From positions 896,001 through 960,000 of the forward strand of contig CAVSNY010000007.1 in assembly GCA_963729605.1 (NCBI GenBank): a DNA stretch of 64,000 nucleotides. The letters are read 5' to 3'. The number at the start of each line of letters is the position of its first letter. Position 1 is the stretch's first letter. This document shows, one piece after another, positions 1 to 23,474 of the stretch. The DNA is from an uncultured Gammaproteobacteria bacterium. GTDB lineage: Bacteria; Pseudomonadota; Gammaproteobacteria; DRLM01. Below the pieces are notes generated by a model. The model ran no database searches and was not told the DNA's origin. It saw only the letters and a program-made list of their open reading frames with translations. Made by a program: the position numbers and the translations under genes.

Positions 1-2
1 CC

Positions 3-68
3 CGCCTGATCGAAGAAGAAGACGGCTCGCACAACCTGATCTGGTCGCGCAGCAAGCCGGCGGCCTGA
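3..68 (+). CDS. 3' end of DUF736 family protein (partial)
   Basis: Reads RLIEEEDGSHNLIWSRSKPAA*; typical DUF736 C-terminus (LIWSR) at the expected Tn4371 position. Confidence 0.75.
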   Translation, partial: RLIEEEDGSHNLIWSRSKPAA

Positions 69-80
69 CGGCCGCCCCGG

Positions 81-104
81 CGCCCCGCCCACCGTGGCGG
101 GGCG
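81..104. terminator. GC-rich hairpin between convergent genes
   Basis: CGCCCCGCC-N6-GGCGGGGCG; no clear U-tract. Confidence 0.45.
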
Positions 105-131
105 CTGGCGGCGATAAGCTATCTCGCTACG

Positions 132-1877
132 CTAATCAATTAGATAACTCTCGTCCATCTCGGGATGAACTTCAAATTTCTCTGTTCCAAGATAAATCAG
201 ACCGACTTCCTTCGGAAGATTATCCAGCCTTTCGATTGCCGTGTTTATCCGCTTACATTGATCCGCATTGATATAGAAACGATGGCCGTCTAGCCAATTC
301 CGAGAATCGTGATAGTTGTCTAGGGTCGCTGATTCAAAAATTGCAACATGTCGCTCAATCACTCTACGACTGGCTAATCGTCGAAGCGGCGGAATTATAT
401 CGACTGTGCGATCATCCGAAACGACAATAGCCAGCCTTCGATGGCTGGCCGTTTCTACGTAGCGCACGCCAGAGTTGAATCGCGACCCCCTTGAAGGGGT
501 ACATTTATCATTCGCCTCACCATCCAAGATGATACCGATGGCATGGCAAACCCCCTTGGGGTCGAGCAATATGGTTCCGTCGATGCCACTGACACTCTGG
601 AGTAACGGCTCGGAAAACTGGACAGGCAGAATAGTTGTGCCTTGTTTGCTAAGACGGTGCGCTTCGCTGGCCGCATCCTCAGCAACAACGATCATGCTGC
701 CGTGCTCTTGCCGAATCTGAGCTAGTAGCAGGCCCCATAGATGTAGCCCATCCTGCTGTGAAGACTGAGGGAACAACCGTGCATAGTTTGCTAAGAAGGC
801 TGCTTTATCGAAAGGTTCCTGTGGGAGCCTTGGCACTGCATAGTGACTGCGAAGCAGAATTTGACTGCCACAACGTAACTCCCACTGATAATGGTCGACG
901 AAGGCAACCGTGAATGCATCTTGCTCGCAGGGGTTGTGCGAGTCTTTCAGATTCCCCAGACCATATATGTACTGACTGTTGGCAATGATTCCGACACCTG
1001 ACGTCGCCATCTGTAGAACCTTCCGAACCCATCGTGGCTGACGAAACGGCACCGGCTCAGCAAATTCCACGAGAAACTCGTTTGCCTCGTTTTCTGGATT
1101 TACGAGAATGAGATGGCCAATGCCTTTCGTTCTCTCGTACATGAGAGAAGAGACAAGGTTCAAGGCGTCAAAAAGGTCGGTGTGAATATATTGTTGCTCG
1201 ATGGCCAATCCCGGCGTGTGCAGGAAATCTTTCGCAGCAATGCGAACGATCTCTTCCGAAGTCCTCATACTGCGATGAGTAAACCGCCCTGGGTCTGGAT
1301 TGTGCAACTCTTCGGTAGCTTCGTGAAGAACAGCGTGCATTGCCGCATGAATTAGACTTCGAAACCCGGACCCCCGTCGTTTTTCATCAGCTTTCTTTGG
1401 AGGTAAGGGTGGGAATTGAACGAAGGTTGCGTTGGGGATTTGTACCACCGGAACCACATAATAATCATCTATGCGTCGAGCCTCACCACAAAAAGAGGTC
1501 ACGTCGTTGGCTGAATTGAAGGCTTCTAGCGCCTTAGCGACCCCCGTGCGAACGGAGTCGCGACGCATCCATTCCGGCTTATCACGCATGCTTGGCTCAT
1601 CGCCAAAAAAAATATTCTGTAAATCATGGCTGCGATAAGTCGATTCGACTGACTCTAGCAGACCATTAAATAGCGAAGGAGCCCATTTCCCGTCTTCCGG
1701 CTCTACACATACTTGATTTCGGTTGTTGCTATCGGGGCTGCGCACTCCAACTAAAAGCACCTCAGCATCCGCCTCCGCACCTAACTTCTTGAGGACATCC
1801 CGAGCCAGTATTTGGATATGAATTCTGTAGCTGGCCTGATAACCCCACATGAAGAGGTAAATGACACTACCTGCCAT
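132..1877 (-). CDS. DisA/diadenylate-cyclase (DAC)-fold protein with long N-terminal putative sensor region (DACNG/DACNH-like)
   Basis: C-terminal HGSMIVV...SGIDGTILLD...RGSRFNS...AIVVSDD matches DAC DGA/RHR/VS-E motif layout; N-terminal MWGYQ motif; RBS GGGAG. Confidence 0.75.
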   Translation of the reverse strand: MAGSVIYLFMWGYQASYRIHIQILARDVLKKLGAEADAEVLLVGVRSPDSNNRNQVCVEPEDGKWAPSLFNGLLESVESTYRSHDLQNIFFGDEPSMRDKPEWMRRDSVRTGVAKALEAFNSANDVTSFCGEARRIDDYYVVPVVQIPNATFVQFPPLPPKKADEKRRGSGFRSLIHAAMHAVLHEATEELHNPDPGRFTHRSMRTSEEIVRIAAKDFLHTPGLAIEQQYIHTDLFDALNLVSSLMYERTKGIGHLILVNPENEANEFLVEFAEPVPFRQPRWVRKVLQMATSGVGIIANSQYIYGLGNLKDSHNPCEQDAFTVAFVDHYQWELRCGSQILLRSHYAVPRLPQEPFDKAAFLANYARLFPQSSQQDGLHLWGLLLAQIRQEHGSMIVVAEDAASEAHRLSKQGTTILPVQFSEPLLQSVSGIDGTILLDPKGVCHAIGIILDGEANDKCTPSRGSRFNSGVRYVETASHRRLAIVVSDDRTVDIIPPLRRLASRRVIERHVAIFESATLDNYHDSRNWLDGHRFYINADQCKRINTAIERLDNLPKEVGLIYLGTEKFEVHPEMDESYLID

Positions 1878-1925
1878 GACAGACTCCCGTGCTCACTGAC
1901 TGCCACGTCCCCACGCCAAGTGCAC

Positions 1926-2819
1926 TCACCAGTTATTCCACAGCCTGATGGCGGATTGGATAAATGCCTCTGCGTTGGCTTTTTCCCACGACGTGTGAGA
2001 CCCCTCCCAAAGCAGATAATATTGTTCATTGGCACATACCAACTTGCTCTTGTCTGCTTCCGTTTGAATCCAGTTTATTGCGTTAACAAAGCAATCAGCA
2101 TAGCTAGATCCGAACTTCTCGGCAGGCACGTTGTAGAGCAGTCCTTCCAGATAATACGATGGCGCGATTCCCGACTTCAATGCGCCGTCAGCAACGAGCT
2201 TGCTTCGGAGATTCTTGAATACGCGAACCATGGGTTTCAGTCTCTTGTTGCTGTTCTGATGTTTCTTGGTCAGATTTTCCGAGTGCTGCTTTGGATAGTT
2301 GGCGATGCGCTCACCAGCTCCGTTAAAGAAGCAGATGCCCTCGTCATAGATCGCGTCGTAGGTGCTTTTGAACTTCCAATAGCGGCGGAACTGCGTCGCT
2401 ACGATGACGTCGACTTTCCGTCTGCTACCGTTCGCCGCTATGGCAATGGCCTTGTCTCCCACCTTGACGTCAGAACCAAAGCGGTCAGTGAGCGCCTTGA
2501 TGACATCCCTCTTGTACTGGTCATACGTATAGGTGGCCGGAACACGTGCGTGGTCGTATGCTGCTTTATCTTCAGGCGACAGAGATGTCAGATCGCTGTA
2601 GTAAACGTCATCAAGTCGTATGACCACATCCACGTCGCTTTCCGCATAGATGTTGGTGTCATTTCCATAGGAACCCTGCAAGAAGACCTTGTAACTCTTC
2701 CCGTGGTATTTAGCGCTCGTCGCTTCTAGAGCATTCTTGATTGTGTTGTAAGTCGTGGCGGACTGTGTGATAGATCCTTGATGAGACCAGACTTCAAGCT
2801 GCGATTCAGGTATCCCCAT
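1926..2819 (-). CDS. cdnE: CBASS CD-NTase, clade E (CdnE-like)
   Basis: [15 protein letters not shown] start, LQGSY-(N)DTNI..SDVDVV catalytic motif, [17 protein letters not shown]; closely resembles Rhodothermus CdnE. Confidence 0.9.
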
Positions 2820-2831
2820 ATTCCCCACCCT

Positions 2832-3794
2832 CTATACCAAGAAGTTCCTTAGCTGCTCCTCGCGTACAGCGAACGACTCGCTGCCTCGCTGTCGAAGAAT
2901 ATTCAGCTTATCAAGGTTGTGCTCCATCAGATCGGTTGCCATTTCTGGACGCTCAAAGGTGTCGCTAATCCGGATTGTCGCGATATCCTTAAACAAAATT
3001 TCACGCAATTGATCCAGTGATTGGGTGTTGATTTCTAGAGTTTTTTGAAGCAGCTGCACCGCAAGCCACTTCTTTGCGATCCTCATCAGAAACCCGGGTT
3101 TAGGGTCCGGGTATATGCCAACACCTACATTCACCACTCGGATGTCTTTGCGCTCCTTTCTCATGGCCACAGTCGCATCGGCAACTGCAAAAAGGGTTGG
3201 ATTGTTCGCGCAATAGCCACCATCGATCAACTCAATCTTATCTCCTGCGGAGGTAACAACAATCTTCCGTTCAAAAAACGGATAGGCTGAGCAAGACGCC
3301 TGTACAGCATCCGCGATGCTTACACCGAACCCTGGTTTGAAGGTTCCTTTGCGACCATGGGCCTGTGCGACACTCCCTTTGAAAATCATCGGCCGCTCTG
3401 TCATCCAACGAGTGGCGACGATACCGATGCCAGTCATGACATCTTCAAATGTTTTTTCCTTGAAAACCTCTTTTGCCAGACTTTGAAGTGCAGCCGTCTT
3501 GGCAGCAGCCGACTTGCAGGCCATGACTCTTGGCACATGTTCCTTGTAAAGATCGTGTATCTGGTCTACTTCGTATCCAAGTGCGATGAGTGCAGCGATG
3601 ATGGCGCCGGTGCTCGTCCCAAATACAAGATCGAACCTCTTGTACAGATGACAACCAAGCATGGCCTCAATTTCTTTGAGCACTCCAAGCGTATAGAAGC
3701 CCTTCGCACCACCGCCGTCGAGAGCAAGAATGCGACACACACCATCACCCGTGTACTCGGTGGTGAGCGAGGATGCCTGGCGGGAATTAGACAT
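2832..3794 (-). CDS. Patatin-like phospholipase, CBASS effector (CapE/CapV-like)
   Basis: LDGGGAKG, GTSTG nucleophile and DGG motifs; immediately upstream of the CD-NTase. Confidence 0.9.
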   Translation of the reverse strand: MSNSRQASSLTTEYTGDGVCRILALDGGGAKGFYTLGVLKEIEAMLGCHLYKRFDLVFGTSTGAIIAALIALGYEVDQIHDLYKEHVPRVMACKSAAAKTAALQSLAKEVFKEKTFEDVMTGIGIVATRWMTERPMIFKGSVAQAHGRKGTFKPGFGVSIADAVQASCSAYPFFERKIVVTSAGDKIELIDGGYCANNPTLFAVADATVAMRKERKDIRVVNVGVGIYPDPKPGFLMRIAKKWLAVQLLQKTLEINTQSLDQLREILFKDIATIRISDTFERPEMATDLMEHNLDKLNILRQRGSESFAVREEQLRNFLV

Positions 3795-4083
3795 GCTCTT
3801 TTTTCTCCACGATAGCGTCCAATTCTTGTCGAACTTGGTTCAGAAGCTGCTTGATATTCCGCGGTTGGTCGCCGGCATACGCCAGCGTCAGCAACGTAAG
3901 AGGATGGATCTCCATGACCTCGCACAACTCGGTCAGCTTGTTCAGGGTCGGGCTTTTCAGGTCGCGCTCCAGCGAACTCAGGTAGGTGCGGCTGGACACG
4001 TCCGAGAACGCCTCTTGGCTCAGGCCGCGTGCCTTCCTGATCCGTCGTAGTGCATCGGGCAACGATGGCTTGAGCGTCGTCAT
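3787..4083 (-). CDS. XRE-family HTH regulator (Tn4371 core)
   Basis: LRRIRKARGLSQEAF..SRTYLSSLERDLKSPTL; overlaps patatin start by 8 nt. Confidence 0.88.
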   Translation of the reverse strand: MTTLKPSLPDALRRIRKARGLSQEAFSDVSSRTYLSSLERDLKSPTLNKLTELCEVMEIHPLTLLTLAYAGDQPRNIKQLLNQVRQELDAIVEKKEHV

Positions 4084-4362
4084 TCTGGACTTTCCCCAAA
4101 ATCCAGAATGACAACTCATTGCATCCTATAGGGCTACAATCTATAGTGTTCATTTGATGCTGTGAACCGCCGCCTCTGTTCTTCCGTGCTTTTACAGAAA
4201 TCCGCTTCGGTGGATGTGTGCTGATCCGGGGAACCGCTTCTGTGCCTTTGATTCTTTCCACTGTTCCGGTTTCGCGCTTTCGCGCTTCGGCGTACAAGCG
4301 CATCCGTGCATCGTCGGCTTTGTGCGGTTGCCAGCCCGCCAGGAGGCAGCGCCCATGAAGCC

Positions 4363-5729
4363 CAATCCACCGAACTTAAGCCATGTCACCCCTTGTAGGC
4401 ATAGCGAGGATGAGGCTTGAAGCGGTCGGTGGGACGTGGCCGAGATCGACCGGGGATGAAGCGCTGGGTGTTGGCAGCCAGGAGTGCCAGGGTGTTGGCG
4501 ATGAGGTCGAGCACGTCGCCCACCATTAACAAGACGCTGGGCAGCATGCGGTGCAGGCAGACGGCGGCATAGCTGCGCGTGCAACGCCGCGCGGCGTTGA
4601 GTGGGGCGTGCTCACGCAGGGCTGCAGCACACATCAACGAGGCGATGTTGTCGGCCAGCACCTTGGCGGCCACGTCGATGATCAGCGCCTGCTGGCTCAG
4701 GCCGGAGACGGCCTCCAGGTGCAGCCGGTGCTTCAGACGCTTGAAGGCCTCCTCGATGCGCCAGCGCTGGTGGTACAGCGCGGCGAAGGCGGGGGCGTCG
4801 GCCTCGTGGGCTTGGAGGTTGGTGGCCAGCACGCGCACGGCGCCATTGGGGGCGACGTTGCGCACCAGGCGCACGCAGGCGGCCTGGCGGGTGCAGCCCC
4901 AGTCGGCGGCGTCCTGGGCCGAGGCGGCATTGAGGGTGGCCAGGCACTCGGACTGGCCGCTGCGGACGAACTCGCGCACCGCACGCCAGCCGCTGGTGTT
5001 GTCGCAGCGCATGATGAAGCGGATGCCGCGCTGCACCAGCAACTGCACCAGCCAGGCGGCCGGATAGCCGCGGTCCAGGAGCAGCACGTCGTCGGGGCGC
5101 AGCTTGTCCAGCGCCTCCATCAGCATGGCGCGCTCGGAAGTGGCCGCGCTGTGCACGGCCGCATGCAGGGTCAGTTCCGAGCCGGGCAGGTACAGGCAGA
5201 ACAGCCGCTGATCAGCGCAGGCGGCGCCGGCCGTGCGGTGGCAAGGCCGCAGAGCGGGCATCAGCACCGAGGCATCGCCGGCGACGAGGCGAAAGCCCTG
5301 CCAGCGAAGCACTGCGCCGGCGTGCTCGGCGCGATCGACCAGGCGGTCATTGAGCCAGGACAGCGCCGGCATGTGCAGCCGGGCGCGGGCCTTGGCGAAG
5401 GCGCGGTCGCTGAGGCCGCGCACCAAGCCGGGCGAGCCCAGCAGCGAAGCGAAGAAGGCATCGAGCGAAGCCTGCTGCGAGCCCGCACGCAGACTCAGCA
5501 GCGAGGCGACCAGCGCCGGCAGCGGCAAGCGCCGAGTGCGCCGGAATGCGTTGGGGTGGTCGGGATGGCGCGCGCGTTGCGCAAACCCGTCCGAAGTGAT
5601 CGTGTCAGACAGGTCCAGCAGCAAGGACTGGATAAATTCACAGGCTTGAGTTCATATTGAGAATTGAACTCGAAAAAGTCAATTATATCAACTACTTAGC
5701 TCAGGTTGGGGCTTAAGTTCGGTGGATTG
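4363..5729 (-). mobile_element. IS4-family insertion sequence, 1367 bp
   Basis: Perfect 20-bp terminal IRs CAATCCACCGAACTTAAGCC (4363-4382 / 5710-5729); 10-bp target duplication CCATGAAGCC (4353-4362 / 5730-5739). Confidence 0.95.
4386..5624 (-). CDS. IS4-family DDE transposase
   Basis: DAS, DRGY and YHQRWRIEEAFKRLK (YREK) motifs; true start uncertain. Confidence 0.92.
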   Translation of the reverse strand: MLLDLSDTITSDGFAQRARHPDHPNAFRRTRRLPLPALVASLLSLRAGSQQASLDAFFASLLGSPGLVRGLSDRAFAKARARLHMPALSWLNDRLVDRAEHAGAVLRWQGFRLVAGDASVLMPALRPCHRTAGAACADQRLFCLYLPGSELTLHAAVHSAATSERAMLMEALDKLRPDDVLLLDRGYPAAWLVQLLVQRGIRFIMRCDNTSGWRAVREFVRSGQSECLATLNAASAQDAADWGCTRQAACVRLVRNVAPNGAVRVLATNLQAHEADAPAFAALYHQRWRIEEAFKRLKHRLHLEAVSGLSQQALIIDVAAKVLADNIASLMCAAALREHAPLNAARRCTRSYAAVCLHRMLPSVLLMVGDVLDLIANTLALLAANTQRFIPGRSRPRPTDRFKPHPRYAYKG

Positions 5730-5731
5730 CC

Positions 5732-6079
5732 ATGAAGCCCCTCGTCACCGACGCGCAGCGCGCCCAGCTGCTCGCCACCGGCCACGCCCGCGCCGAAGGC
5801 CAGGCCCTCGACCCGTTGCCGGTGGTTCGCTTGTTCACCCCAGATGCGCACGCCACTTGGCTGCTCGCCACCCTCGATCCCGAGGATGGCGACACGGCCT
5901 ATGGCTTGTGCGACATTGGCATCGGCCTGCCCACGCTGGGCACCGTGCGGTTGTCCGAACTGGCGTCCATCGTCGGGCCACAGGCGCGGCCCATCGAGCG
6001 GGATCTGTATTTCGTCGCTCAGCGCACGCTGTCGGAATACACGCGGCTGGCACGCATTAACGGCTCGGTCATCGACTGA
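5732..6079 (+). CDS. DUF2958 protein
   Basis: PVVRLFTPDAHATWLL..DGDTAYGLCDIGIG; Tn4371 position. Confidence 0.85.
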   Translation: MKPLVTDAQRAQLLATGHARAEGQALDPLPVVRLFTPDAHATWLLATLDPEDGDTAYGLCDIGIGLPTLGTVRLSELASIVGPQARPIERDLYFVAQRTLSEYTRLARINGSVID

Positions 6080-6414
6080 GCAGCCCCAGCACAGCGCCGC
6101 CAAGCGCGGCGCACTGTGTCTATTTCGGTCTGGGTTCAGACCGCCCGCGCATCAATCGGCACTCATGCACCGGCGAAGTGCGGGCATGACCAAAACAGTC
6201 CTGATTGCCGATGCGGCTTGCGGCACCGTGTCCATTGCTGCGCACCATCATCGTTCGCGCAGCCGTCGCATTCGGACGACCTGTGCAATGTCCTGGAGCC
6301 AATCGGTCTTGACACCGCCAGCTTAGCGAGTACCCGTGACGATACGTCGATGAAGCCGTAGCTCCCCCTGACGCCCGTGGCGACGAGCCCTGTTGTTCGA
6401 CAGGAGGCTGCGTC

Positions 6415-7197
6415 ATGGCAGAGTCCGATCACTGGCGCCCCGGTGCCGCTTACCTTTACGTCCTGCACCTGGACGGCCCCGCGTTAGCGTGGGAATACCT
6501 GCGCCGTCACCCCGACTATCGGCGCGACTGGCTGCGCCGTCGCCGTCATCCCGGAGCGGCGCAGCACTGGGGCCTGCGCTTGCTGGAAGACCCGGCCCTG
6601 GATGCGCGCGACGCGCACCCGGCCTGGTTTCCCGATCACGACAGCGTGGTGCTGCTCTATCCCGATGCGGACCCGCCGCCCGATGCCGAACGCTTTGCGT
6701 TCTGGCATCTGCCAGGTCGCAAGCAACTGATCCACGACGGGCGGCGGTTGGTGCTGGCCACCCGCTGGGCCGGCTGCTGTCTGCGCCTGGCCTTCGCGTC
6801 CGATCTGGCGGATGGCATGGCCTACGCCTATGCCATGCGCGCATCGCCTGATCCCTGTTCGCGTTGCCGCGCGCTGGTAGGCGAACTGGACAAACTGGTG
6901 GCGGTCGCACCAACGGCACTGGCCGGGGCACGCCCTTCGGCGACCGCACTGTTGGAGCTGCGCACCTTGCAGGCGCTCGACGGCACGCTGGCCGGTGCAT
7001 CGCTGCGCGCCGTGGCTGACGTGTTGTTCGGCACTGCGGCGGTCGCCAAAGACTGGCACGCCGACGGCGCGCTGCGTGCCCGCGTGCGCCGCCTGGTGCG
7101 GCGGGGCCAGACCTTGATGCGTGGCGGCTACCGCCGTCTCGCGCAGCTTCATCCGCCCACGCAGGGACGTTTCGCATCCTTCGCAAAACGTCCCTGA
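6415..7197 (+). CDS. DUF2285-domain transcriptional regulator
   Basis: LAWEYLRRHPDY N-terminus; ALDGTLAGASLR..RVRRLVRRG..GGYR C-terminus. Confidence 0.85.
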   Translation: MAESDHWRPGAAYLYVLHLDGPALAWEYLRRHPDYRRDWLRRRRHPGAAQHWGLRLLEDPALDARDAHPAWFPDHDSVVLLYPDADPPPDAERFAFWHLPGRKQLIHDGRRLVLATRWAGCCLRLAFASDLADGMAYAYAMRASPDPCSRCRALVGELDKLVAVAPTALAGARPSATALLELRTLQALDGTLAGASLRAVADVLFGTAAVAKDWHADGALRARVRRLVRRGQTLMRGGYRRLAQLHPPTQGRFASFAKRP

Positions 7198-7585: not shown

Positions 7586-8425
7586 GTGGCCCTCGTCGTG
7601 TCCAGCCTGGAGAAGGAGCGCGAACAGCTCGACCTGTTCCGCGCGCTGCCGGGCGACATGGCGCCGCGCGACGCACAAGACCTGATGGCCTATCCGTTCT
7701 TCTCGCTGGCCAAGTCGCGGCGCACGGCGCCGATCGACTTCCGCTCCGGTGGCGTCACCGTGCGCGTGGAAGGCACGCAAGAGCACGGCATCGCCACCAT
7801 CTGGGATGCCGACATCCTCATCTGGGCCGCCAGCCAGATCGTCGAGGCGCGCGATTCAGGCATCCGCCCATCGCGCAGGATGCAGGCCACGCCTTACGAG
7901 ATCCTGCGATTCATCGGCCGCGGCACGTCGCTGCGCGACTACCAGCGCCTCAAGGCCGCGCTGGATCGCCTGCAATCGACCACCATTGCCACCTCGATCC
8001 GCGAGACCACGGGGCGGCGCCTGCATCGCTTCTCGTGGATCAACGAGTGGAAGGAGCGCGCGGATGCCAGGGGCGCGCCGCTCGGCCTCGAACTCATCCT
8101 GCCGGATTGGTTCTTTGCCGGCGTGCTGGACGAAGCCTTGGTGCTCACCATCGACCCGGCGTACTTCAAGCTCACCGGCGGCATCGAGCGCTGGCTGTAC
8201 CGCCTGGTGCGCAAGCACGGTGGCAAGCAGCGCGACGGCTGGCAGTTCGACTTCCCCTACCTGTATCGCAAGTCGGGCAGCCTGGCGCAGCCCCGCGACT
8301 TCGCCCGCGACCTGCGCACGTTGGCTGCTCGGCAATCGCTGCCCGGCTATGTGCTGTCCGTCGAGCGCTGGCCCGGCACGCCGGAAATCCTCGCCTTTCG
8401 CCCCGTGCCGTCCACGGCACGTTGA
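7586..8425 (+). CDS. repA: Replication initiator protein A
   Basis: QDLMAYPFFSLAK, GIATIWDADILIW, YFKLTGGIERWLY. Confidence 0.88.
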   Translation: MALVVSSLEKEREQLDLFRALPGDMAPRDAQDLMAYPFFSLAKSRRTAPIDFRSGGVTVRVEGTQEHGIATIWDADILIWAASQIVEARDSGIRPSRRMQATPYEILRFIGRGTSLRDYQRLKAALDRLQSTTIATSIRETTGRRLHRFSWINEWKERADARGAPLGLELILPDWFFAGVLDEALVLTIDPAYFKLTGGIERWLYRLVRKHGGKQRDGWQFDFPYLYRKSGSLAQPRDFARDLRTLAARQSLPGYVLSVERWPGTPEILAFRPVPSTAR

Positions 8426-8464
8426 TAACCGCGGGGATGAAAACGGGACAAGCTGTGAATGGGC

Positions 8465-8620
8465 TCGTGCTATCGGGCGCGCCGGGACTCGTGCTATCAG
8501 GCGCACCCGTATCGTGCTATCAGGCGCGCGAATCGCGCCTAACTTCAGTGGGCACAAGGATTTTTCCTGCGCTTAACTTTATATCTAACTTTAAAAGCTA
8601 TCTAACGAGTAACAAGACCT
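8465..8620. repeat. Three iteron-like 16-bp direct repeats plus AT-rich tract (putative oriV)
   Basis: TCGTGCTATCRGGCGC at 8465, 8489 and 8512, then an AT-rich stretch with TAACTT repeats. Confidence 0.7.
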
Positions 8621-8714
8621 TGTTATTGGGCCGGTGGATAACCGCCGAAGGTCAACAGCAAAGGCGTTTTTCAGGCCGTTCATCGAGCCGCTTTCCACTA
8701 GGGAGGGCTGCGCC

Positions 8715-9353
8715 ATGATCGTCGCCTTGCTCAACCAGAAAGGCGGCGTCGGCAAGACCACGCTCGCCACCCACATCGCGGGTGAACTCGCGCTGCGCGG
8801 TCAACAGGTCATCCTGTTGGATGCCGACCCGCAGGGTTCATCACTGGACTGGACGCAACGGCGCAGCCAGCAGGGGCTGCCACGGCTGTTCAGCGCCGTG
8901 GGCCTCGCACGCGAAACGCTGCACCAGGAAGCACCCGAACTCGCCCGGCGCTGCGATCACATCGTCATCGACGGCCCGCCACGCATCGCCGCACTCGCGC
9001 GCTCCGCGCTGCTGGCGGCCGACCGTGTGCTGGTACCGGTGCAACCGAGTCCCTACGACCTGTGGGCCAGCGCCGAGATGGTGGCGTTGATCCGCGAGGC
9101 GCAACTGTTCAGGCCGGCGCTGCGCGCCGCCTTCGTCATCAACCGGCGTGTGGTGCGCACCGTCATCGGACGCGAAGCGCGTGGCGCGCTCGCCGAACAG
9201 CCGCTGCCCGCACTGCACGCCGAAGTGCGCCAGCGCATCGTCTTCGCCGACAGCGTGGCCGCCGGGCGGCTCGCACGAGAAACCGCGCCGGACAGCGCCG
9301 CCGCACGCGAGATCACCGCGCTGGCCGACGAGCTGCTGAGGTGGTCGCCATGA
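8715..9353 (+). CDS. parA: ParA partition ATPase
   Basis: NQKGGVGKTT, DADPQGS, IDGPP. Confidence 0.92.
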   Translation: MIVALLNQKGGVGKTTLATHIAGELALRGQQVILLDADPQGSSLDWTQRRSQQGLPRLFSAVGLARETLHQEAPELARRCDHIVIDGPPRIAALARSALLAADRVLVPVQPSPYDLWASAEMVALIREAQLFRPALRAAFVINRRVVRTVIGREARGALAEQPLPALHAEVRQRIVFADSVAAGRLARETAPDSAAAREITALADELLRWSP

Positions 9354-9592
9354 GTGGCAAGCGCATCGCCATCGGCGTGCGACCGCCGGCGAATCCGCAG
9401 GCCGAAGCCTGGATTCGCCAAGGCGACGCCAACAGCGTCCAGAAAAGCGACCTCTACACCGCGCGCCTGACTCTCGACGTGACGCCAGCCATGCGCGCCC
9501 GCATCAAGGTCTCGGCCTTCACGCAGGGCGTGACGGTGGCCGAGCTGCTGCGCGCACTGCTGGAACGCGAGTTCCCGGAGCACACGCCATGA
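9350..9592 (+). CDS. ParG-like partition protein (RHH)
   Basis: ARLTLDVTPAMRARIK..TVAELLR; ATGA overlap with parA. Confidence 0.78.
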   Translation: MSGKRIAIGVRPPANPQAEAWIRQGDANSVQKSDLYTARLTLDVTPAMRARIKVSAFTQGVTVAELLRALLEREFPEHTP

Positions 9593-10134
9593 GCCCCGCC
9601 ACGCAGGCACAGATTCATAAGAGCGCGGCTGCACCGCCGCCTTCACCGCAGCCGCTCGCATCACTCGACAGTCGCGTGCCGCTCACCCGCGTATCGCTCG
9701 CCTACGTGGAGCAGCGCATCAATCTCTATCTGCGTTTCGGCAATCCGGCGCGCACCGTGCAGCTCGACCGCTGGCGGCGCTGCGCGGTGTTCTTGCCAAT
9801 AGCGATCTTCTGTCGCATCCGCTGGGAGTCGAACGACTACGGCACGACACGCTGGCAACTCATGGTGATGCAAGCCTGCACGCCGCTGGATGCCATGCAG
9901 ACCATTCCCGGCATTCGTCCCGGCGCGCGCCTGCTGCTGCACGCCGAAGGCGAACAGAAAGTGCGAGCTGTGCTCGCGCAGATCGACGTTATCGAAGCGC
10001 TGGGCATCGACGCCATCGACGTGTCGCCCGCGTACTGGCGCACGCTGGGCAACCGTCTGGCTGCGCGCCTGCCGCTGCCGGCGTACAGCGCCGAACGGCA
10101 CGCGGCCTGGCTGGCCGGGAGGGCGCTGCAATGA
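9589..10134 (+). CDS. DUF2840 protein
   Basis: LRFG..RWESNDYGT..SPAYWRTLGNRL. Confidence 0.82.
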   Translation: MSPATQAQIHKSAAAPPPSPQPLASLDSRVPLTRVSLAYVEQRINLYLRFGNPARTVQLDRWRRCAVFLPIAIFCRIRWESNDYGTTRWQLMVMQACTPLDAMQTIPGIRPGARLLLHAEGEQKVRAVLAQIDVIEALGIDAIDVSPAYWRTLGNRLAARLPLPAYSAERHAAWLAGRALQ

Positions 10135-10694
10135 CCGCGACGACCACAACCCTTCCTCGCTCGCGCCTGCGCGCCCGCTTCGCGTTGGCGGCACTCGCTG
10201 CCTGCGGCCTCGCTGCGCTGGCCTGGGCCGCCTTCGTGCAGCCATCGGCGCGCATCGTCTACAACCCGTCCAACAGCGTTCCAGTCGGCTGGTATCGCAT
10301 CGAACCGACGCACTCGCTGCCTGGTGCGTTGCACGTCGGCAGCATTGTGCTGACCACCTTGCCGGCAGACGCCGCTGCGCTCGCCGCGCAGCGCGGCTAC
10401 CTGCCGTCGCACATTCCGCTGCTCAAACGTGTTGGCGCGGTCGCGCCGCAACACGTCTGCATCGTGAATGGCATGGTGCGCATCGACGGCGTGCCGGTGG
10501 CCGCCGTGCTGCGCACCGATCGCTGGGGTCGGCCGCTGTCATCCTGGCCGCCGTGCAGGCAACTCGCCGAGGGCGAACTGTTCCTGCTCAGCATCACCAA
10601 CCCGGCGTCGTTCGACAGCCGCTACTTCGGGCCGGTCAGCGCCGCCGCCGTGCTCGGCGTGGCGCGACCGATCCGCCTGGAGACGCAGCCGTGA
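10131..10694 (+). CDS. traF: TraF-type S26 pilin-processing peptidase
   Basis: NPSNSVPVGWY, LLKRV, SFDSRYFGPV. Confidence 0.88.
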   Translation: MTATTTTLPRSRLRARFALAALAACGLAALAWAAFVQPSARIVYNPSNSVPVGWYRIEPTHSLPGALHVGSIVLTTLPADAAALAAQRGYLPSHIPLLKRVGAVAPQHVCIVNGMVRIDGVPVAAVLRTDRWGRPLSSWPPCRQLAEGELFLLSITNPASFDSRYFGPVSAAAVLGVARPIRLETQP

Positions 10695-10899
10695 CGGCGC
10701 ACGTCGTTGCGCCGTTCGGCATGTCGTTGCCGTATTCATGCCGGTGCAGTGCGGGTGCATTCGCACCGCGCATCGCCCGGCACTCCCCCGTGCAGACAGC
10801 TTGCCCCGAGCGCGCCATGCCGCAGGCATGGCTGGCGCTCGCCGGCGGCCGGGCTGCGCGTTGCGCAGCGCCGCCGGGGCATCGCACCCCCGTGCCGTC

Positions 10900-11000
10900 A
10901 GGCCGGGGGAAGATGCAGGGCAAGATTGAAGGGTGCGGCACCAAGGTGCGCACAAAGCCAGTCTGCACGTGGGGTTGGCGCGGCACGCGCCATATCGCGG
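10900..11000. other. Putative oriT region
   Basis: Intergenic, upstream of relaxase; ATCTTGC (nic-like, - strand, 10920-10926) next to short GGTGC/GCACC inverted repeats. Confidence 0.35.
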
Positions 11001-11094
11001 CACCGTGCCGCGAGCAGCGCCAATGCCGCGCGGGCATTGACGCAACCGCGTGCCACGCACGCGCGAGCGCGCTGGACTTCGCCGGAGCCACCGC

Positions 11095-13047
11095 ATGAGC
11101 CAGCGCAGCAGCGACGACGCCGACCGCTTCCGCATCCGCCCCGGCGCGCCGAAACAGCGCGGCGATGCCTTCGTCTCCAAGGTACTGCGCCAAGCCACCA
11201 AGGCGGCCAATGCCACTGGCGGCAAGCGCGGCAAGGCACCTGGATCGCGGCTGGGGCGCGGCCATGTAGCGGCGCGCTTCACCGGACAGTCGCTGTCCGC
11301 TTCTTCTCGCAGAGCAACGGTCAAGATGCGGCTGGTGTATCTCAAGCAGGCCGGTGCGCGCGCGACCATCACGCACCTGCGCTACATCGAGCGCGAGGGC
11401 GTTGGCCGCGACGGCGAGCCGGGGCAGGCGTACAGCACAACCACCGACGACGCCGACCTGGCCGCCTTCGAGGAACGCGGCCGCGAAGACCGCCACCAGT
11501 TCCGCTTCATCGTCTCGCCGGAGGATGCTGCGGAGCTGGAAGACTTGAGGCGCTACACCCGCGACCTGATGGCCCGCATGGAAGCCGACCTGGGCACGCG
11601 GCTGGAGTGGGTCGCGGTCGATCACTGGAACACCGACAACCCGCATACCCACGTCGTGCTGCGCGGCAAGGACGACACCGGCAAAGACCTCATCATCTCG
11701 CAGGACTACATCACGCGCGGCATGCGCGAACGCGCCGCTGAACTCGCCACCGAATGGCTGGGGCCGCGCACCGAGCTGGAGATCCAGCGCGTCATGCAGC
11801 GCGAAGTGGAACAGGAGCGGTGGACGGGGCTGGATCGCAGCTTGCAGCGCGAAGCGGTGGACGGCCTGGTGCAGGTCGAACGCTTCAACGAACCCCGGCT
11901 GCAACGCCAGCGCCTGCTGCTGGTCGGGCGCCTGCAACGCTTGCAGCGCATGGGGCTGGTCACCGAAACCCGGCCCGGCGTGTGGGCCGTCCACACCGAG
12001 GCTGAAGCCACACTGCGCGCGATGGGCGAGCGCGGCGACATCATCCGCACCATGCAGCGAGTGATCGGCGGCACACAGCGCGAGCTGGCGGTGTTCGAGC
12101 CCGGCGAGAAGGCGCGACCGATCATCGGCCGCGTCGCCGCCAAGGGCCTGGTCGACGAGCTGTACGACAAGGGCTACCTGGTGGTCGACGGCATCGACGG
12201 CAAGGCGCACTACGTCGCGCTGCCGGCCAGGACCGAGTTGGCGCCGTACCCGGTCGGTGCCGTCGTCGAAGCCCGGGGCGCCGGCGAAGTCCGTGCCGCC
12301 GATCGCAACATCGCCGCGCTGGCCACCGATGGCCTGTACCGCACTGATCATCACCTGACCGTCGCCACGGCACAGGCCGCACCCGGCCGCGACCCCGCCG
12401 AGGTGGTGGGGACCCACGTGCGCCGGCTGGAAGCCCTGCGCCGCGCCGGCATCGTGGAGCGCCTGGGCGAAGGCATCTGGCAAGTGCCTGCCGACCTGCC
12501 CGAGCAGGGCCGACAGTACGACGCGCAACGCGCCGGCGGCGTGGTGGTGGAGCTGAAATCGCATCTGCCCATCGAGCGGCAGGCTCGCGTGATCGGCGCC
12601 ACCTGGCTGGACCAGCAGTTGATCGGCGGTGGTGAGGGGCTGGGCGAGCTGGGCTTTGGTGGTGACGTGCGCCAGGCGCTCCAGCAGCGCGCCGACTTCC
12701 TCGCCGAACAGGGTCTCGCCGAGCGGCGAGGCGAGCGCGTGATTCTGGCTCGCAACCTGCTGGCGACGCTGCGCAACCGCGACCTAGCCCAGGCGGCGCA
12801 GAACATCGCGGCCGAAACCGGCCTGGAGCACCGTGCGGTAGGTGATGGCGAGCGCGTCAGTGGCGTCTACCGCCGCAGCGTAATGCTGGCCAGCGGACGC
12901 TTTGCGATGCTCGATGACGGCAAGGGTTTCAGCCTGGTGCCCTGGAAGCCGGTGCTGGATCACCGGCTTGGACAGTCAGTGGCTGCGACGATACGTGGAA
13001 CCAGTGTGTCTTGGGAGTTCGGGAAACAGCGCCGCCTGGCGATTTGA
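11095..13047 (+). CDS. VirD2-like MOBP relaxase with DUF3363
   Basis: HLRYIEREG, FRFIVSPED, DHWNTDNPHTHVVLRG (HUH). Confidence 0.92.
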   Translation: MSQRSSDDADRFRIRPGAPKQRGDAFVSKVLRQATKAANATGGKRGKAPGSRLGRGHVAARFTGQSLSASSRRATVKMRLVYLKQAGARATITHLRYIEREGVGRDGEPGQAYSTTTDDADLAAFEERGREDRHQFRFIVSPEDAAELEDLRRYTRDLMARMEADLGTRLEWVAVDHWNTDNPHTHVVLRGKDDTGKDLIISQDYITRGMRERAAELATEWLGPRTELEIQRVMQREVEQERWTGLDRSLQREAVDGLVQVERFNEPRLQRQRLLLVGRLQRLQRMGLVTETRPGVWAVHTEAEATLRAMGERGDIIRTMQRVIGGTQRELAVFEPGEKARPIIGRVAAKGLVDELYDKGYLVVDGIDGKAHYVALPARTELAPYPVGAVVEARGAGEVRAADRNIAALATDGLYRTDHHLTVATAQAAPGRDPAEVVGTHVRRLEALRRAGIVERLGEGIWQVPADLPEQGRQYDAQRAGGVVVELKSHLPIERQARVIGATWLDQQLIGGGEGLGELGFGGDVRQALQQRADFLAEQGLAERRGERVILARNLLATLRNRDLAQAAQNIAAETGLEHRAVGDGERVSGVYRRSVMLASGRFAMLDDGKGFSLVPWKPVLDHRLGQSVAATIRGTSVSWEFGKQRRLAI

Positions 13048-13113: not shown

Positions 13114-14523
13114 TCATATAACGCGCGGCAACAAGATGTTGAACCGCGTCCGCGCGTCGTCGGATTCGACACCGACCTTGCCTCCGTGCGCCTCGACAAT
13201 CGACTTGACAATGGCAAGCCCCAGCCCGGCACCATCACCCTTGCGTTGTCGAGACGGGTCGCCGCGGTAGAAACGATTGAAAAGCCTTGGCAGCTCCTCC
13301 GCCGAAATCTTCTCGCCAGGATTTTCGACGCTGATGGTGGTGGTTTGCTCATTCTGGGACAGCGTCACGGTAACGGTTTCCCCGCGTGGCGTGTAGCGGA
13401 TCGCGTTAGAGAGAAGATTGCTGAGTGCGCGGCGAAGCATCTCCTGATCAGCCCGTATCGGTGCTGCTCGTCCCTTGAGCTGCGACGAGACGCCTTGATC
13501 TTCCACCCAGGCCTCGAAATACTCGAACAAGCCCTGGATCGTTTCGGTGAGATTCACGGTCTCCAGATGGAGATCGGCTGGAGCGCTCTCGGTCTGCGCG
13601 AGAAACAGCATGTCGTTGATCATCCGGTTCAGGCGTCCGAATTCCTCTAGGTTCGAGTAGAGAATTTCCCGGTACTCATCGGCGGAACGGGCCTGACCCA
13701 CTGCCACTTCCGTCTGCGTGGTCAAATTGGTAACTGGCGTACGCAGTTCATGGGCGATGTCGGCGGAAACATTGGCCAGTTGGGCGTATCCCTCCTCGAT
13801 ACGCCCGAGCATGGCGTTGAATGAGGAGATGGTCTCTTCCAGTTCGATCGGCACTTCCTTCGGGTCCAATCGCATGTACAACTTGGAAGAAGTAATCGCT
13901 CGAATCTTCTTGTTGGCCCTGCGGATCGGCTTGTGTCCCCAGCGAACTGCACCCCAGGCCACCAGGATCGCAATGCACATGACGACGCAGACCGTCCACC
14001 ACTGGATGCGTTTAAAACTGCTGATGAATGTGAGGTGGTGATCGATATCCATCGCAACGGCTATCGTGTACCTCTCACCCAAAGCGTCATCGCCGCCGAT
14101 CTGTAAAACGGCACCGCGATAGTGCGTCCCGTTTTCTTCCCATACCGACATTTCCTGCGCACTTGCGAGATCGATAGGACGCTCATTTGCGGTAAAGCGT
14201 GCCAGATCGGGACTACCCCTGGGGGCATAGAGTGTTTCTCCAGCAGCATTGGCTACATAGTAGTAGACCCCATGGTGCCCGCGGACTGCACGCTGCAAGG
14301 CCTGCGCATCGCTATTGTCATGCGCCTCACCTAGCGCCCGTATCACCGAACTGGCTATCACCCTCAATTCTTCTTCATCCATCTCGGCGAAGTGCTGATC
14401 CAACGATCTAACACTGATCCAGTTGAATATCAGGAATACCAGCAGCATCGCGACGCCGACTAACCCGGTCACCCGCGACGCGAGTGACGCTGGACGATGA
14501 GTGATAGCAGGTCTATTCGTCAT
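13114..14523 (-). CDS. cusS: Heavy-metal sensor histidine kinase
   Basis: 2 [28 protein letters not shown]. Confidence 0.85.
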
Positions 14524-15211
14524 CCGGGATATCCAGCGTATAGCCCATGCCCCGAACGGTATGAATGAGCTTGGGTTCGAAGTCATCGTCGATCTTTGCC
14601 CGCAGCCGACGAATCGCGACATCGATCACATTGGTGTCGCTGTCGAAGTTCATGTCCCAAACTTGGGACGCGATCAGCGAACGCGGTAAAACTTCTCCCT
14701 GACGACGCGCCAACAACTCAAGCAGCGCGAATTCCTTGTTAGTCAGATTGATGCGCCGTCCGCCACGGATCGCACGCCGCCGCGCCATGTCCAGTTCGAG
14801 ATCCACGATCTGCATGCGGTCGTGATGGGCAGGCATGGCGCCGCGACGCAGCAGAGTGCGCACGCGAGCGAGCAGCTCGGCAAAGACGAACGGCTTAATC
14901 AGATAATCGTCAGCACCCAGCTCCAGCCCCTGGACGCGATCATCCACATGTCCACGTGCGGTCAGGAACAACACCGGAACCTGGTTGCCCGCCGCTCTGA
15001 CCGACTGCAGGATGCGCCAGCCGTCTATATCAGGAAGCATGACATCGAGCATGATCAGGTCGTAGGCTTCCGTCATCGCCATGTGGTGACCATCGAGCCC
15101 GTTGCGCGCCAGATCGACTACAAACCCCGCTTCCATAAGGCCCTGACGAACATAGTCCGCCGTTTTGTTCTCGTCTTCGACAACCAGTAGTTTCATCGTT
15201 GCGTTGCTCAT
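14513..15211 (-). CDS. cusR: Heavy-metal response regulator
   Basis: OmpR family with [25 protein letters not shown]. Confidence 0.9.
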
Positions 15212-15301
15212 GCGGCGCCCGGCCCCTCATGACAGGTGAATCGAGCAGGTGGCTTTCAACTAGCACTCTATCTGACCGGACCTGCCAGAAAGATGACGCA
15301 T

Positions 15302-15321
15302 AGATTACAAAAATGTAATCT
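15302..15321. promoter_or_regulatory. CusR/CopR box
   Basis: Palindrome AGATTACA-AAAA-TGTAATCT between divergent cusR and DUF305 genes. Confidence 0.7.
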
Positions 15322-15552
15322 TCATGTCACCAGAACGACAGTAACAGCTCCATAGGATGACTACTGAAACTGGCGTGAACTCCGCCTTCAGACGCCGCGA
15401 CCATCGATGTCTCCTATGAGCAGTCAATTGGCTAAGAAGGTGGCTTCGCCGAGCAGCACGGATGCGCGCCGGCCTACATCGACAAATGGCCGTGTGGTAT
15501 TCCTTAAGCTGATGGGAACGGGGCACTGAGCAACCAGAGAAAGGGATCCGAT

Positions 15553-16047
15553 ATGGCGCACACTTCACACACGACTGATGATGGCCACGGGAAAGGAACA
15601 CATCGACCCTACCTGATGTTCTGGATCAACATGGGCCTTGCCCTGATCGTCATGTATATCGTCATGTTTTCGATGATCGACGGCATGCACGACTTCCGGA
15701 ACAATCTCAACATGTTCTATATGGCGATGACGATGTGGGCGCCTATGGGAATTTTCATGCTCGCAACGATGCCGCACATGTTTCCGAGGAAGGGCCTTAA
15801 CCTCGCGCTCTATGTACTTTTTGCCGTTTTAACGGTCGGATCGCTTACCGCGACGCGTGCACAAACTCTCATTGATGATCGCCAGTTCATTGATTCGATG
15901 ATCCCACATCACTCCGGCGCGATCCTGATGTGCCGCGAAGCCGATCTTAATGACGCGGAGCTTGTTGACCTTTGCACTGAAATCATGAGCGCGCAGCGAT
16001 CGGAAATCGATCAGATGGAGCGAATTAGAACGCGCCTGGGTGGATGA
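15553..16047 (+). CDS. DUF305 (CopM-like) Met-rich membrane protein
   Basis: FIDSMIPHHSGAILM..AQRSEIDQM. Confidence 0.8.
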   Translation: MAHTSHTTDDGHGKGTHRPYLMFWINMGLALIVMYIVMFSMIDGMHDFRNNLNMFYMAMTMWAPMGIFMLATMPHMFPRKGLNLALYVLFAVLTVGSLTATRAQTLIDDRQFIDSMIPHHSGAILMCREADLNDAELVDLCTEIMSAQRSEIDQMERIRTRLGG

Positions 16048-16206
16048 GCATCACGCTCACCGCAGTAGGGGCCCGGTCAATTTTGGCGCAGGCTTTCCCG
16101 ATGGCGAGAATTAGGTTCGAATTCCGTCCGAGGTGGCAGGCAAGTCGGTGGTTCAGTGGGCAGATCCTCGGTAGACCTTTCGTCGCCTCGCGATCACGAT
16201 CTATAT

Positions 16207-16596
16207 CTATTCGACCGGAACGATTTGAGTAATGGCCGCATCCATTCCCTTAGATTCGAAGTCAAACCGCACCGTCTGCCCCACCTGTACCGAGGCGACT
16301 TGCTCGGGCGTAGCCCGGAATCCCATGGTCATCGCCGGCCACTGCAGCGATGGCACCGGCTCGTGGGCAATCGTGATCTTCCCCGCCGCAGCGTCGATGG
16401 CTTCGATGGTCCCGGTTGCCGAGGCCTTCGTGGCCGTTGCGGCTTCATCCGCCCTGGCACCGGCGTCGCCAGCCATCTGCATTGGCTCGGAACCACGCTG
16501 TCCCGTATCCGCTGCCTCGTCGGGCGTCTCCGAGCAGCCGACCAGTAAAGTGGCAGTTAGCAAGAGTATGTGAATTTTCATAACGTAGTTCTCCAA
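16207..16596 (-). CDS. cusF: CusF-like copper-binding lipoprotein
   Basis: HEPVPSLQWPAMTMGF; lipobox LVGC. Confidence 0.85.
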   Translation of the reverse strand: MENYVMKIHILLLTATLLVGCSETPDEAADTGQRGSEPMQMAGDAGARADEAATATKASATGTIEAIDAAAGKITIAHEPVPSLQWPAMTMGFRATPEQVASVQVGQTVRFDFESKGMDAAITQIVPVE

Positions 16597-16689
16597 AGAA
16601 CATCGACTGCGGATTTGTTCGCAACGGCATTGCAGCCGACATGCCGTAGCAATTGCGAAATCGGTGATGAGTGATTGTCAGACCCTGTG

Positions 16690-19600: not shown

Positions 19601-19842
19601 GCTCGTACACCCGGCACCGATAGCATGGTGGTCGCCAGCGGGTAAGTCACCTGATCCTCGATAATGTGCGGCGTTTGGCCGCTCCACTCGGTCTGGATAA
19701 TGACCTGGGTATCGGACAGGTCGGGCAGCGCGTCCAACGGCGTGTGCTGCACCGACCACAGTCCCGCAATCGCAAGCGACACCGCACCGATGAGCACAAG
19801 CGCCCGGTTGGCGACAGCGCCGCGAATGATCCGGGCGATCAT
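16690..19842 (-). CDS. cusA: CusA/SilA heavy-metal RND transporter
   Basis: [28 protein letters not shown]. Confidence 0.95.
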
Positions 19843-21105
19843 GGCCGGTTCTCCGTCGCATCGGGCAGTGCGGGTGCGGCGGGCGTTGGAGCCCCCAACC
19901 GCTGCAACGCACCCGACAGACTGGCTTCCGAATCAATCAGGAACTGGCCTGACGTGACAATGTGCTCGCCGCCCTGAAGACCTTCAAGGATTTCAATACG
20001 GCCACCGCCGCTGCGGCCGGTCCGCACTCGCACCGGCTCGAAGCCGCCATCGGAACGCATCACGATCACCCGGCTGTCGCTACCTGTGGCGATGAGCGCG
20101 TCGGCCGGTATCAGCGGCACCTGCTCACCCCCGGCGGATTGCAAGGTCAACTCGGCGAACATGCCGGGCACCAGTCGACCGTCCGGGTTGTGCAGCACGA
20201 TGCGAGCCCATTGAGTGCGACTGGTAGGCTCGATCTGCGGCAGCAGGGCTTCGACATCTCCCGCGAAGCGCCGCCCAGGCACCGCGCTGACGGTAGCTTC
20301 GACCTTCGTCCCCGGACCGATGCCGACAACGCGTGCCTGTGGGATCGCCGCTTCCAGCCACACCGTGGACGTACCGTTGACGCGAAAAAGCGGCATACCG
20401 GCCGTAGCGGCCTGACCTTCGCGCACCAGCACTTCTCTGACGACACCATCGCTCGGTGCGAGCAGCGTCACACTGCCATCGCGATTCAAGCGAACGTCGG
20501 ACAGCCCTAGCAGTTGCAGTCGCTGCATGGCCGCCGTGTGCAGACTTTTTGCCGCTGCCGAGCCCGCCTCTTCCAGAGCCTGTGCCTCGGCGACCGCACT
20601 ACTCCAGGCCGGGGCCAGTATGGTCGCAAGCGGTTGGCCGCGGCGTACGGATTCGAAAGGCGCCTTGACGTGTAGCTGCGGTGATGATCGCATCGACGCG
20701 CGCACTGACCACCGACTCCTGTCGTAAATCCCATGTCAGAGTGGCCGTTGCGCGAAGGGGGTCTGTCAGTTGGCCAACTTCGACTACAGCGGTGCGGATA
20801 CCGACGTTCTGCTGTACGCCCGGATCAATGCGCACGCCCGCAGTCGCAGTCTGGTCGGCATACCTCGGCACCAGTTGCATGTCCATGAATGGCGACTTGC
20901 CTGGCTGGTCGAAGTGCTGGTCCGGCACCATCGGGTCGTACCAGTACAGCACTTGGCGCTCCTGTGGCGCGGGCACGGCGGGTTGCAACACTTCTGCGTG
21001 GGTATCGGCATGTCGTTGCCCCCACCAGTAGCCGCCGCCGATGCCGATGATCAACAGCCCCAGAGCCGAGGCAACGAGTCCAGCCCGGATCATGATGCGA
21101 TTCAT
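19839..21105 (-). CDS. cusB: CusB periplasmic adaptor, split by a frameshift near 20680
   Basis: [17 protein letters not shown] in ORF 20599-21105; [12 protein letters not shown] in ORF 19839-20705. Confidence 0.85.
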
Positions 21106-23461: not shown

Positions 23462-23474
23462 GGTGGTTCTCCTC

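Follow-up and report, generated by a model that had tools for sequence, protein, structure and literature searches.

A locus assigned to the DS-2 anti-phage system combines a type I CBASS with a diadenylate cyclase-fold protein on an integrative and conjugative element

Why a cyclic oligonucleotide-based anti-phage signalling system (CBASS) needs a second cyclase of unrelated fold is the question raised by three genes at the left end of a 64,000-nucleotide stretch from an uncultured gammaproteobacterium (assembly GCA_963729605.1, contig CAVSNY010000007.1, positions 896,001 to 960,000; hereafter the window, with coordinates counted from its first letter). All three lie on the minus strand. They encode a CapE-type patatin phospholipase, the effector (DS-2A, 320 amino acids (aa), 2832..3794; called by Pfam, PADLOC, NCBIfam, PDB and the E. 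coli orthologue), a clade-E cGAS/DncV-like nucleotidyltransferase (CD-NTase) predicted to synthesize 3'3'-cUMP-AMP (CdnE or DS-2B, 297 aa, 1926..2819; PADLOC, NCBIfam and an alignment with RmCdnE), and a DS-2C or CdaG-type protein (581 aa, 132..1877; Pfam, NCBIfam, AlphaFold2 and Foldseek) made up of DACNG, DACNH, a diadenylate cyclase (DAC) domain and a C-terminal helical bundle. The locus combines a type I CBASS, CdnE with the patatin CapE, with DS-2C as a third gene. By sequence comparison it is almost certainly the anti-phage system DS-2, and the question belongs to that system and not to this copy.

Correspondence with DS-2

All three proteins passed the NCBIfam equivalog models for this system, with DS-2A scoring 510.8 bits against NF053870 DS2_1 (cut-off 400), CdnE 463.8 bits against NF053871 DS2_2 (cut-off 350) and DS-2C 800.7 bits against NF053872 DS2_3 (cut-off 630). 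Over their full lengths they were 84.1% (320 aa; WP_001593459.1, anti-phage phospholipase), 82.5% (297 aa; WP_001593458.1, anti-phage nucleotidyltransferase) and 75.6% (581 aa; WP_001593457.1, anti-phage protein) identical to the correspondingly annotated proteins of E. coli DS-2, and the order and orientation of the phospholipase, CD-NTase and DAC genes were the same in both. At the nucleotide level, the entire cassette was recovered by blastn from 18 of 5,426 complete E. coli genomes, with 73.3% identity over 98% of the query.

According to the available portion of the DefensePredictor study, DS-2 consists of a phospholipase, a cGAS-like enzyme and a diadenylate cyclase, defence by the E. 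coli system was eliminated by mutating two predicted catalytic residues of the DAC, and CBASS adjoins 15 of 30 DAC homologues, an association that the study credits Galperin 2023 with having noted first (PMC13092281). The third protein received the name DS-2C in a preprint, likewise available in part, whose Figure 1 legend equates EcDS-2C with WP_001593457.1 and whose authors call its role undefined (10.64898/2026.08.10.743927). The first-pass annotation of the window had read the locus as a type I CBASS and proposed the DAC protein as a possible new CBASS ancillary, with the options of a phage sensor, of a second-signal or decoy synthase and of an independent defence gene. The former part stands, and the gene identities it gave (patatin, CdnE, DAC-fold protein) were borne out by Pfam, PADLOC, NCBIfam and the fold match; the ancillary is no longer new because the system is in print as DS-2, with NCBIfam models for all three genes. 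The locus is a further copy of an already described system validated in E. coli and not a discovery.

As expected of type I, the effector gene adjoins the CD-NTase gene, and the flanking genes belong to the backbone of an integrative and conjugative element (ICE) and to an insertion sequence (IS), with no Cap2/Cap3 or Cap6-8 among them. With the RmCdnE/CapE type I CBASS (PDB 6e0k/6e0l and 9iom) the locus shares the CD-NTase fold, the catalytic residues, the lid-1 Asn, the open donor pocket and the patatin effector, but it differs in its third gene, a second cyclase of unrelated fold.

The middle open reading frame (ORF) was listed as 1926..2828 on the minus strand, 300 aa from a GTG. Since the alignments with RmCdnE, with the NCBIfam DS2_2 profile and with the 297-aa E. 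coli orthologue all begin at residue 4 of this ORF, we placed the start of CdnE at the ATG at 2819, which leaves 12 nt from the patatin stop and 48 nt to the start of the DAC gene. The three genes are indeed co-oriented with these gaps and lie in a block of lower GC than the ICE, as had been noted at the outset; GC was 0.49-0.54 over window positions 1-4000, compared with 0.65-0.70 in the 4 kb that border the window on its left and 0.63-0.72 in the sequence starting at 4500. Promoter and terminator scans gave counts at chance level (4 versus 3.3 expected and 6 versus 4.9 expected), so no operon boundaries are claimed from them.

The vehicles of the two copies differ. E. coli DS-2 is chromosomal and lies beside a DncV-CapV-Cap2 CBASS, whereas the window copy is carried by an ICE in a high-GC genome, immediately downstream of an ICE regulator gene that it overlaps. 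In E. coli NZ_CM194526.1 (L084:1-2575) the neighbour of DS-2 is a type II CBASS with an E2/UBC Cap2, DncV and a cGAMP-activated phospholipase; this island thus houses two CBASS systems and one DAC.

Active sites and predicted products of the two cyclases

Pfam placed DACNG at residues 10-219 of DS-2C (E 1.2e-67) and DACNH at 234-336 (E 6.7e-29), and the DAC domain spans about 355-500. The Pfam DAC model itself, PF02457, gave no match in DS-2C at E<=0.01; a precomputed match to it was present in 10 of the 120 listed relatives. Searches of DS-2C against the PDB with phmmer and with a 94-sequence profile returned 0 matches each, and PADLOC v2 assigned it to 0 families. An AlphaFold2 model built from the 94-sequence alignment (predicted local distance difference test (pLDDT) 92.0, predicted template-modelling score 0.84) was compared with the PDB by Foldseek, and the matches listed were all DisA, CdaA, DacA or CdaM chains (E 2e-6 to 1e-4, probability 1.00, TM-score on target up to 0.66). 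As modelled, DS-2C possesses a DAC fold. The N-terminal 345 residues modelled alone (pLDDT 87.6) had no PDB match at E<=0.001, and their best matches, weak ones (E 0.04-0.3), were DAC enzymes, in agreement with the description of DACNH as a degenerate DAC in the available preprint text (10.64898/2026.08.10.743927). The N-terminal part of about 340 aa is strongly conserved, and the protein has no effector domain of its own.

The predicted active site of DS-2C comprises D433-G434-T435, R466-F467-N468 and S487-D488-D489. Among 94 relatives of 28-86% identity, position 433 was Asp in 93, 434 Gly in all 94, 435 Ala in 60 and Thr in 25 (Thr in the window), 466 Arg in 93, 467 Tyr in 67 and Phe in 26 (Phe in the window, Tyr in E. 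coli) and 468 Asn in all 94. The DGA and RHR of canonical DACs thus correspond in this family to DG(A/T) and R-(Y/F)-N; E. coli DS-2C shares the DGT of the window and has R-Y-N-S against R-F-N-S. Judged from this alignment, the active site of the window protein is typical of its relatives and not degraded. D433 and R466 are 33 residues apart, and the spacing from DG(A/T) to the Arg-x-x motif is like that in DisA and CdaA. The preprint, in the text available, gives DGA and RHR as the canonical motifs, describes "select residues" as conserved in DS-2C, and reports c-di-AMP synthesis in vitro by DS-2C homologues, followed by thin-layer chromatography and liquid chromatography coupled to mass spectrometry (LC-MS), with 3'3'-c-di-AMP as the product, for Hymenobacter homologues by LC-MS (10.64898/2026.08.10.743927). 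DisA and CdaA have their fold in common with DS-2C and their product in common with its homologues, but DS-2C differs from them in having no Pfam-model or PDB sequence match, in R-(Y/F)-N for RHR and in its partner domains.

The effector DS-2A matched Pfam Patatin (E 7.5e-30), the PADLOC CBASS phospholipase effector PDLC00755 (E 6.8e-167) and, over residues 4-320, PDB 9iom, named 'cUMP-AMP-activated phospholipase' (E 9.4e-183). Its translation contains GGGxKG, GTSTG and DGG, which we take to be the patatin motifs.

CdnE carries SMODS/NTP_transf_2 (Pfam), matched PADLOC cyclase PDLC00788 (E 2e-132) and had RmCdnE (6e0k/6e0l, E 1.2e-57) as its closest PDB match. Its G49, S50, D62, D64 and D137 (the G-S, the DxD and the third Asp) were invariant in 34 aligned sequences including that of the window. 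The Asn of its NYPK aligned with N166 of RmCdnE, the pyrimidine-permitting residue with which the first-pass annotation had equated it. In the accessible text on RmCdnE, the lid-1 Asn hydrogen-bonds the acceptor uracil and N166S yields mainly cAA instead of cUA, a C-terminal (R/Q)xW closes the donor pocket of c-di-UMP synthases and so restricts the donor to pyrimidine, and RmCdnE, which has Cys252 and Glu265 in place of this motif, accepts adenine (PMC10442399). The window CdnE has Cys and Thr at the C252 and E265 positions and reads T-S-W, as does E. coli DS-2 CdnE, without (R/Q)xW. Its product had initially been given as cUMP-AMP or c-di-UMP; the first of these fits, and c-di-UMP is less likely because (R/Q)xW is absent and the CapE-type effector, 84% identical to E. 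coli CapE, matches 9iom, so that 3'3'-cUMP-AMP is the more likely predicted product.

Neighbourhoods of DS-2C relatives and the mobile setting

A word-index search returned 634 relatives of DS-2C at E<=1e-5, of which the 120 listed were 62-96% identical and all carried DACNG and DACNH, and an exhaustive search yielded 693 clusters at 50% identity (E<=1e-30). Among contigs from one genome per species, 345 stretches encode a DS-2C relative, and the neighbourhood counts given here refer to the best 80 of them. Neighbours were called by tblastn with the window proteins and by hidden Markov models (HMMs) built from the matches and searched in six frames, with PADLOC checks of representatives.

A CD-NTase was found in the flanks of 49 of the 80 loci: together with a patatin in 28, with a Cap15-like two-transmembrane (2TM) effector in 15, with both effector types in five and alone, as a weak match, in one. 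Six loci had a CBASS-type effector without a CD-NTase and 25 had neither. The recurrent linkage of DAC and CD-NTase that had been named as the test of the initial proposal was thus found. It was closest among the nearest relatives, with a CD-NTase in 15 of the 16 loci that reach 60% identity (the remaining one offers just 145 nt of upstream sequence), in 24 of 32 at 40-60% and in 10 of 32 below 40%; where both flanks extend to 3 kb or more the figure was 35 of 53. Of 27 patatin-type loci, 22 kept the order patatin, CdnE, DAC, their genes lying 12-285 nt apart, and in such loci the identities of the three genes co-varied (Spearman 0.87 and 0.81). All 34 aligned CdnEs beside DS-2C-like genes (the window and loci L003-L079) kept the lid-1 Asn. 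The (R/Q)xW motif was present in none of the 27 CdnEs from patatin loci and in six of seven from 2TM-effector loci, the seventh being truncated in the alignment.

Two individual loci deviated in other ways. In Chryseobacterium (L073:696-7728) a patatin, a CD-NTase of another clade (PDLC00774), a 567-aa ORF, a 2TM effector, two small ORFs and a DS-2C-like gene are co-directional, an arrangement longer than DS-2. A Porticoccaceae metagenome-assembled genome (L018:6001-7035) has a DS-2C-like gene with an in-frame stop in the first 345 codons, which may be a pseudogene or an assembly error.

Four loci (L021:5268-7731, L023:5309-7740, L024:5353-7746 and L030:5242-7722) are two-gene modules of a Cap15-like 2TM effector and a DAC, the effector gene ending 3-12 nt before a DS-2C-like gene whose product is 48-53% identical to that of the window. 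No CD-NTase lay within 6 kb in any of them. Of the four assemblies, for which completeness values were not supplied, three gave no SMODS match and one gave a match on a contig other than that of the locus. Among 119 upstream ORFs from the 37 loci without a CdnE match (one ORF of 1,941 aa was excluded), Pfam Cap15_CD_rec was found in nine, PADLOC 2TM effector models in up to 10 and capP and capH in three each; the 108 downstream ORFs of these loci were covered by six-frame HMM searches only. Neither this CD-NTase-free arrangement nor the pattern of lid-1 Asn and (R/Q)xW in the CdnEs appears in the available portions of the main texts on DS-2 and DAC defence.

Panoptoo and PanDA (PanS with the 2TM-beta effector PanE), as described in the text available, likewise put a DAC-fold enzyme to use against phage in hosts that lack a housekeeping DAC, as is the case here. 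PanS is a constitutive repressor of its effector, of about 150 aa, without sensor domains and without a CD-NTase partner. DS-2C differs in its 581 aa, its DACNG and DACNH domains and its CD-NTase and patatin partners, and catalytic mutants of the E. coli protein lose defence. Membership of the window locus in Panoptoo/PanDA was considered and rejected, the hallmarks of these systems being a minimal DAC of about 150 aa and a 2TM-beta effector without a CD-NTase, and the locus having a 581-aa DAC, a patatin and a CD-NTase.

The three-gene DS-2 is ICE cargo. DUF932 and DUF736 genes lie to the left of the cassette and DUF2958, a DUF2285-like regulator, RepA and a DUF3363 relaxase to the right, a backbone that we assume to be of the Tn4371-like family. 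E. coli plasmid NZ_CP031135.1 carries an element collinear with the region. The backbone of this element reads DUF736, helix-turn-helix (HTH) gene, DUF2958 without a cassette; by blastn its DNA aligned to window positions -954..105 and 3868..4279 and not to the stretch between, and comparison with this related backbone delimits the low-GC cassette to 106..3794. Three loci set in other genomic surroundings (L004, L006 and L009) were similar only over a segment from about 126-144 through 3747-3828, the three genes. The cassette occupies the same ICE site in five other loci.

Upstream of the patatin gene, with an 8-nt overlap between its stop and the patatin start, lies that of the HTH_3 regulator (98 aa, 3787..4083, minus strand; Pfam HTH_3 E 1.7e-09). 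It was considered as a CapH-like regulator of DS-2 because of a weak PADLOC capH match (E 2.6e-05). This was rejected since the plasmid element has the HTH gene and no cassette, which makes it an ICE backbone gene and not part of DS-2; the protein is 70% identical over 94 aligned residues to the plasmid copy, and tblastn found a homologue upstream in only 6 of the 80 DS-2C loci. An apparently intact IS element (4363-5729), with perfect 20-bp terminal inverted repeats at 4363-4382 and 5710-5729 and a 412-aa DDE_Tnp_1 transposase (4386-5624, minus strand), sits between the HTH gene and DUF2958; none of the related ICE copies compared has it.

The same element carries further cargo. A stretch of the window's own genome 6-13 kb to the left of the window (L002:4736-11745) holds a Lamassu system (LmuA 8292-9380, LmuC 9365-9871 and LmuB 9820-11745, with PADLOC E-values of 3e-134, 6e-57 and 5e-203, respectively) and a PDC-S02 / PD-(D/E)xK candidate (4736-6565), and its GC is again lower (0.55-0.58). 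Within the window, cargo of copper-resistance type occupies 13114-26599, with a CusS-like sensor kinase (13114-14622), an AcrB/CusA-type RND pump (16690-19842) and a multicopper oxidase (24671-26599). A 662-aa ORF with ThiF and nitroreductase domains (60313-62301, minus strand) is unrelated to DS-2.

Possible roles of c-di-AMP in DS-2

In the mechanism that we propose, CdnE would most likely make 3'3'-cUMP-AMP, which would activate CapE and lead through membrane degradation to abortive infection. DS-2C would, by homology, be a CdaG-type diadenylate cyclase making 3'3'-c-di-AMP, with DACNG and DACNH as presumably sensory domains. Its c-di-AMP would either serve as a second signal, with a trigger of its own, that the effector reads, or stimulate CdnE, and would not be a repressing decoy. 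PF02457 had no match in the window's own genome (94.5% complete), so that c-di-AMP from DS-2C would be a private signal in this host. We lean, by a modest degree, towards c-di-AMP as a positive second input to the CdnE-CapE axis, because the E. coli DAC mutants lose defence with no toxicity reported in the available text (PMC13092281), because DS-2C carries large conserved non-catalytic domains and because the two-gene loci indicate that a DAC can stand alone with an effector.

Several points weigh against this preference. The E. coli work mutated the DAC only, as far as its available text goes, and so bears on the DAC and not on a joint need for CdnE and CapE (PMC13092281). The PDB name of the CapE match, 9iom, points to cUMP-AMP and not to c-di-AMP. 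RHR reads R-F-N in DS-2C and the Pfam DAC model misses the protein, for which reasons its activity is taken from homologues only, and these are 27-35% identical or less. Of the relatives surveyed, the 25 of 80 without a CBASS gene nearby are mostly below 40% identity, so that a tie to CBASS is not obligatory for the family. Finally, the activity of DS-2C homologues in vitro without a phage factor is as compatible with a constitutive decoy as with a triggered sensor (10.64898/2026.08.10.743927, in the text available), and the CD-NTase-free two-gene loci could work by repression, as Panoptoo does, and would then argue for a decoy or guard role.

In that role constitutive c-di-AMP would saturate phage sponges or nucleases so that the CdnE signal survives, or would restrain something that is released on depletion, as in Panoptes, Panoptoo and PanDA. 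Besides the in vitro synthesis just mentioned, it is favoured by the negative regulation through which minimal DACs with 2TM-beta effectors work (10.64898/2026.08.10.743927, 10.64898/2026.08.10.743972, as far as their available texts go), by the four loci in which a DS-2C-like DAC is partnered by a 2TM effector of this kind and a CD-NTase is lacking, and by the host having no other DAC, which matches a mutual exclusivity already noted. On the other hand, a dead cyclase should in a repression model release the effector, and the E. coli catalytic mutants, which were evidently viable enough for titring, lost defence (PMC13092281, available text); a constitutive decoy synthase has no obvious need for about 340 aa of conserved N-terminal domains, and the effector here is a patatin and not a 2TM-beta barrel. 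We consider a decoy or guard unlikely, if worth keeping in view.

DS-2C could also act in defence or signalling on its own, merely travelling alongside the CBASS pair without any exchange of signals, as the 25 relatives without a CBASS gene in their flanks and the restriction of the E. coli mutations to the DAC (PMC13092281, available text) would allow. This we strongly doubt, given the CD-NTase linkage in all but one of the 16 closest loci, that one being cut off 145 nt upstream, the preserved order and co-divergence of the three genes in patatin-type loci, the restriction of the DNA shared between unrelated contexts to exactly these genes, and the lack of an effector domain in DS-2C. Its fold is that of DisA and CdaA, which would suit an enzyme that supplies c-di-AMP for osmotic or cell-wall homeostasis without relation to phage, but the gene belongs to a low-GC cassette, acquired horizontally, within an ICE that also carries Lamassu, the cassette is rare among complete E. 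coli genomes, and the published defence phenotype contradicts such a housekeeping function (PMC13092281, available text). We regard the latter as scarcely credible.

On why a CBASS should need a second cyclase the survey offers three handles: the DAC is nearly always linked to a CD-NTase in close relatives, the linked CD-NTases all look pyrimidine-selecting, and some loci consist of effector and DAC only. The Asn found in 34 of 34 CdnEs hints that it is specifically pyrimidine-type CBASS that is paired with c-di-AMP. More tentatively still, CdaG/DS-2C-type cyclases may be autonomous, sensor-bearing generators that drive CBASS-type effectors alone, with the DS-2 effector or CdnE integrating two chemically different dinucleotides. 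If this possibility were true, the two-gene loci of 2TM effector and DAC would be a CD-NTase-free relative of CBASS, and the DS-2 effector or CdnE would read the c-di-AMP of the DAC together with CdnE's pyrimidine-containing signal. For the family at large, the window documents DS-2 as a compact three-gene cassette that moves on ICEs among high-GC Proteobacteria, in the company of Lamassu and copper-resistance cargo.

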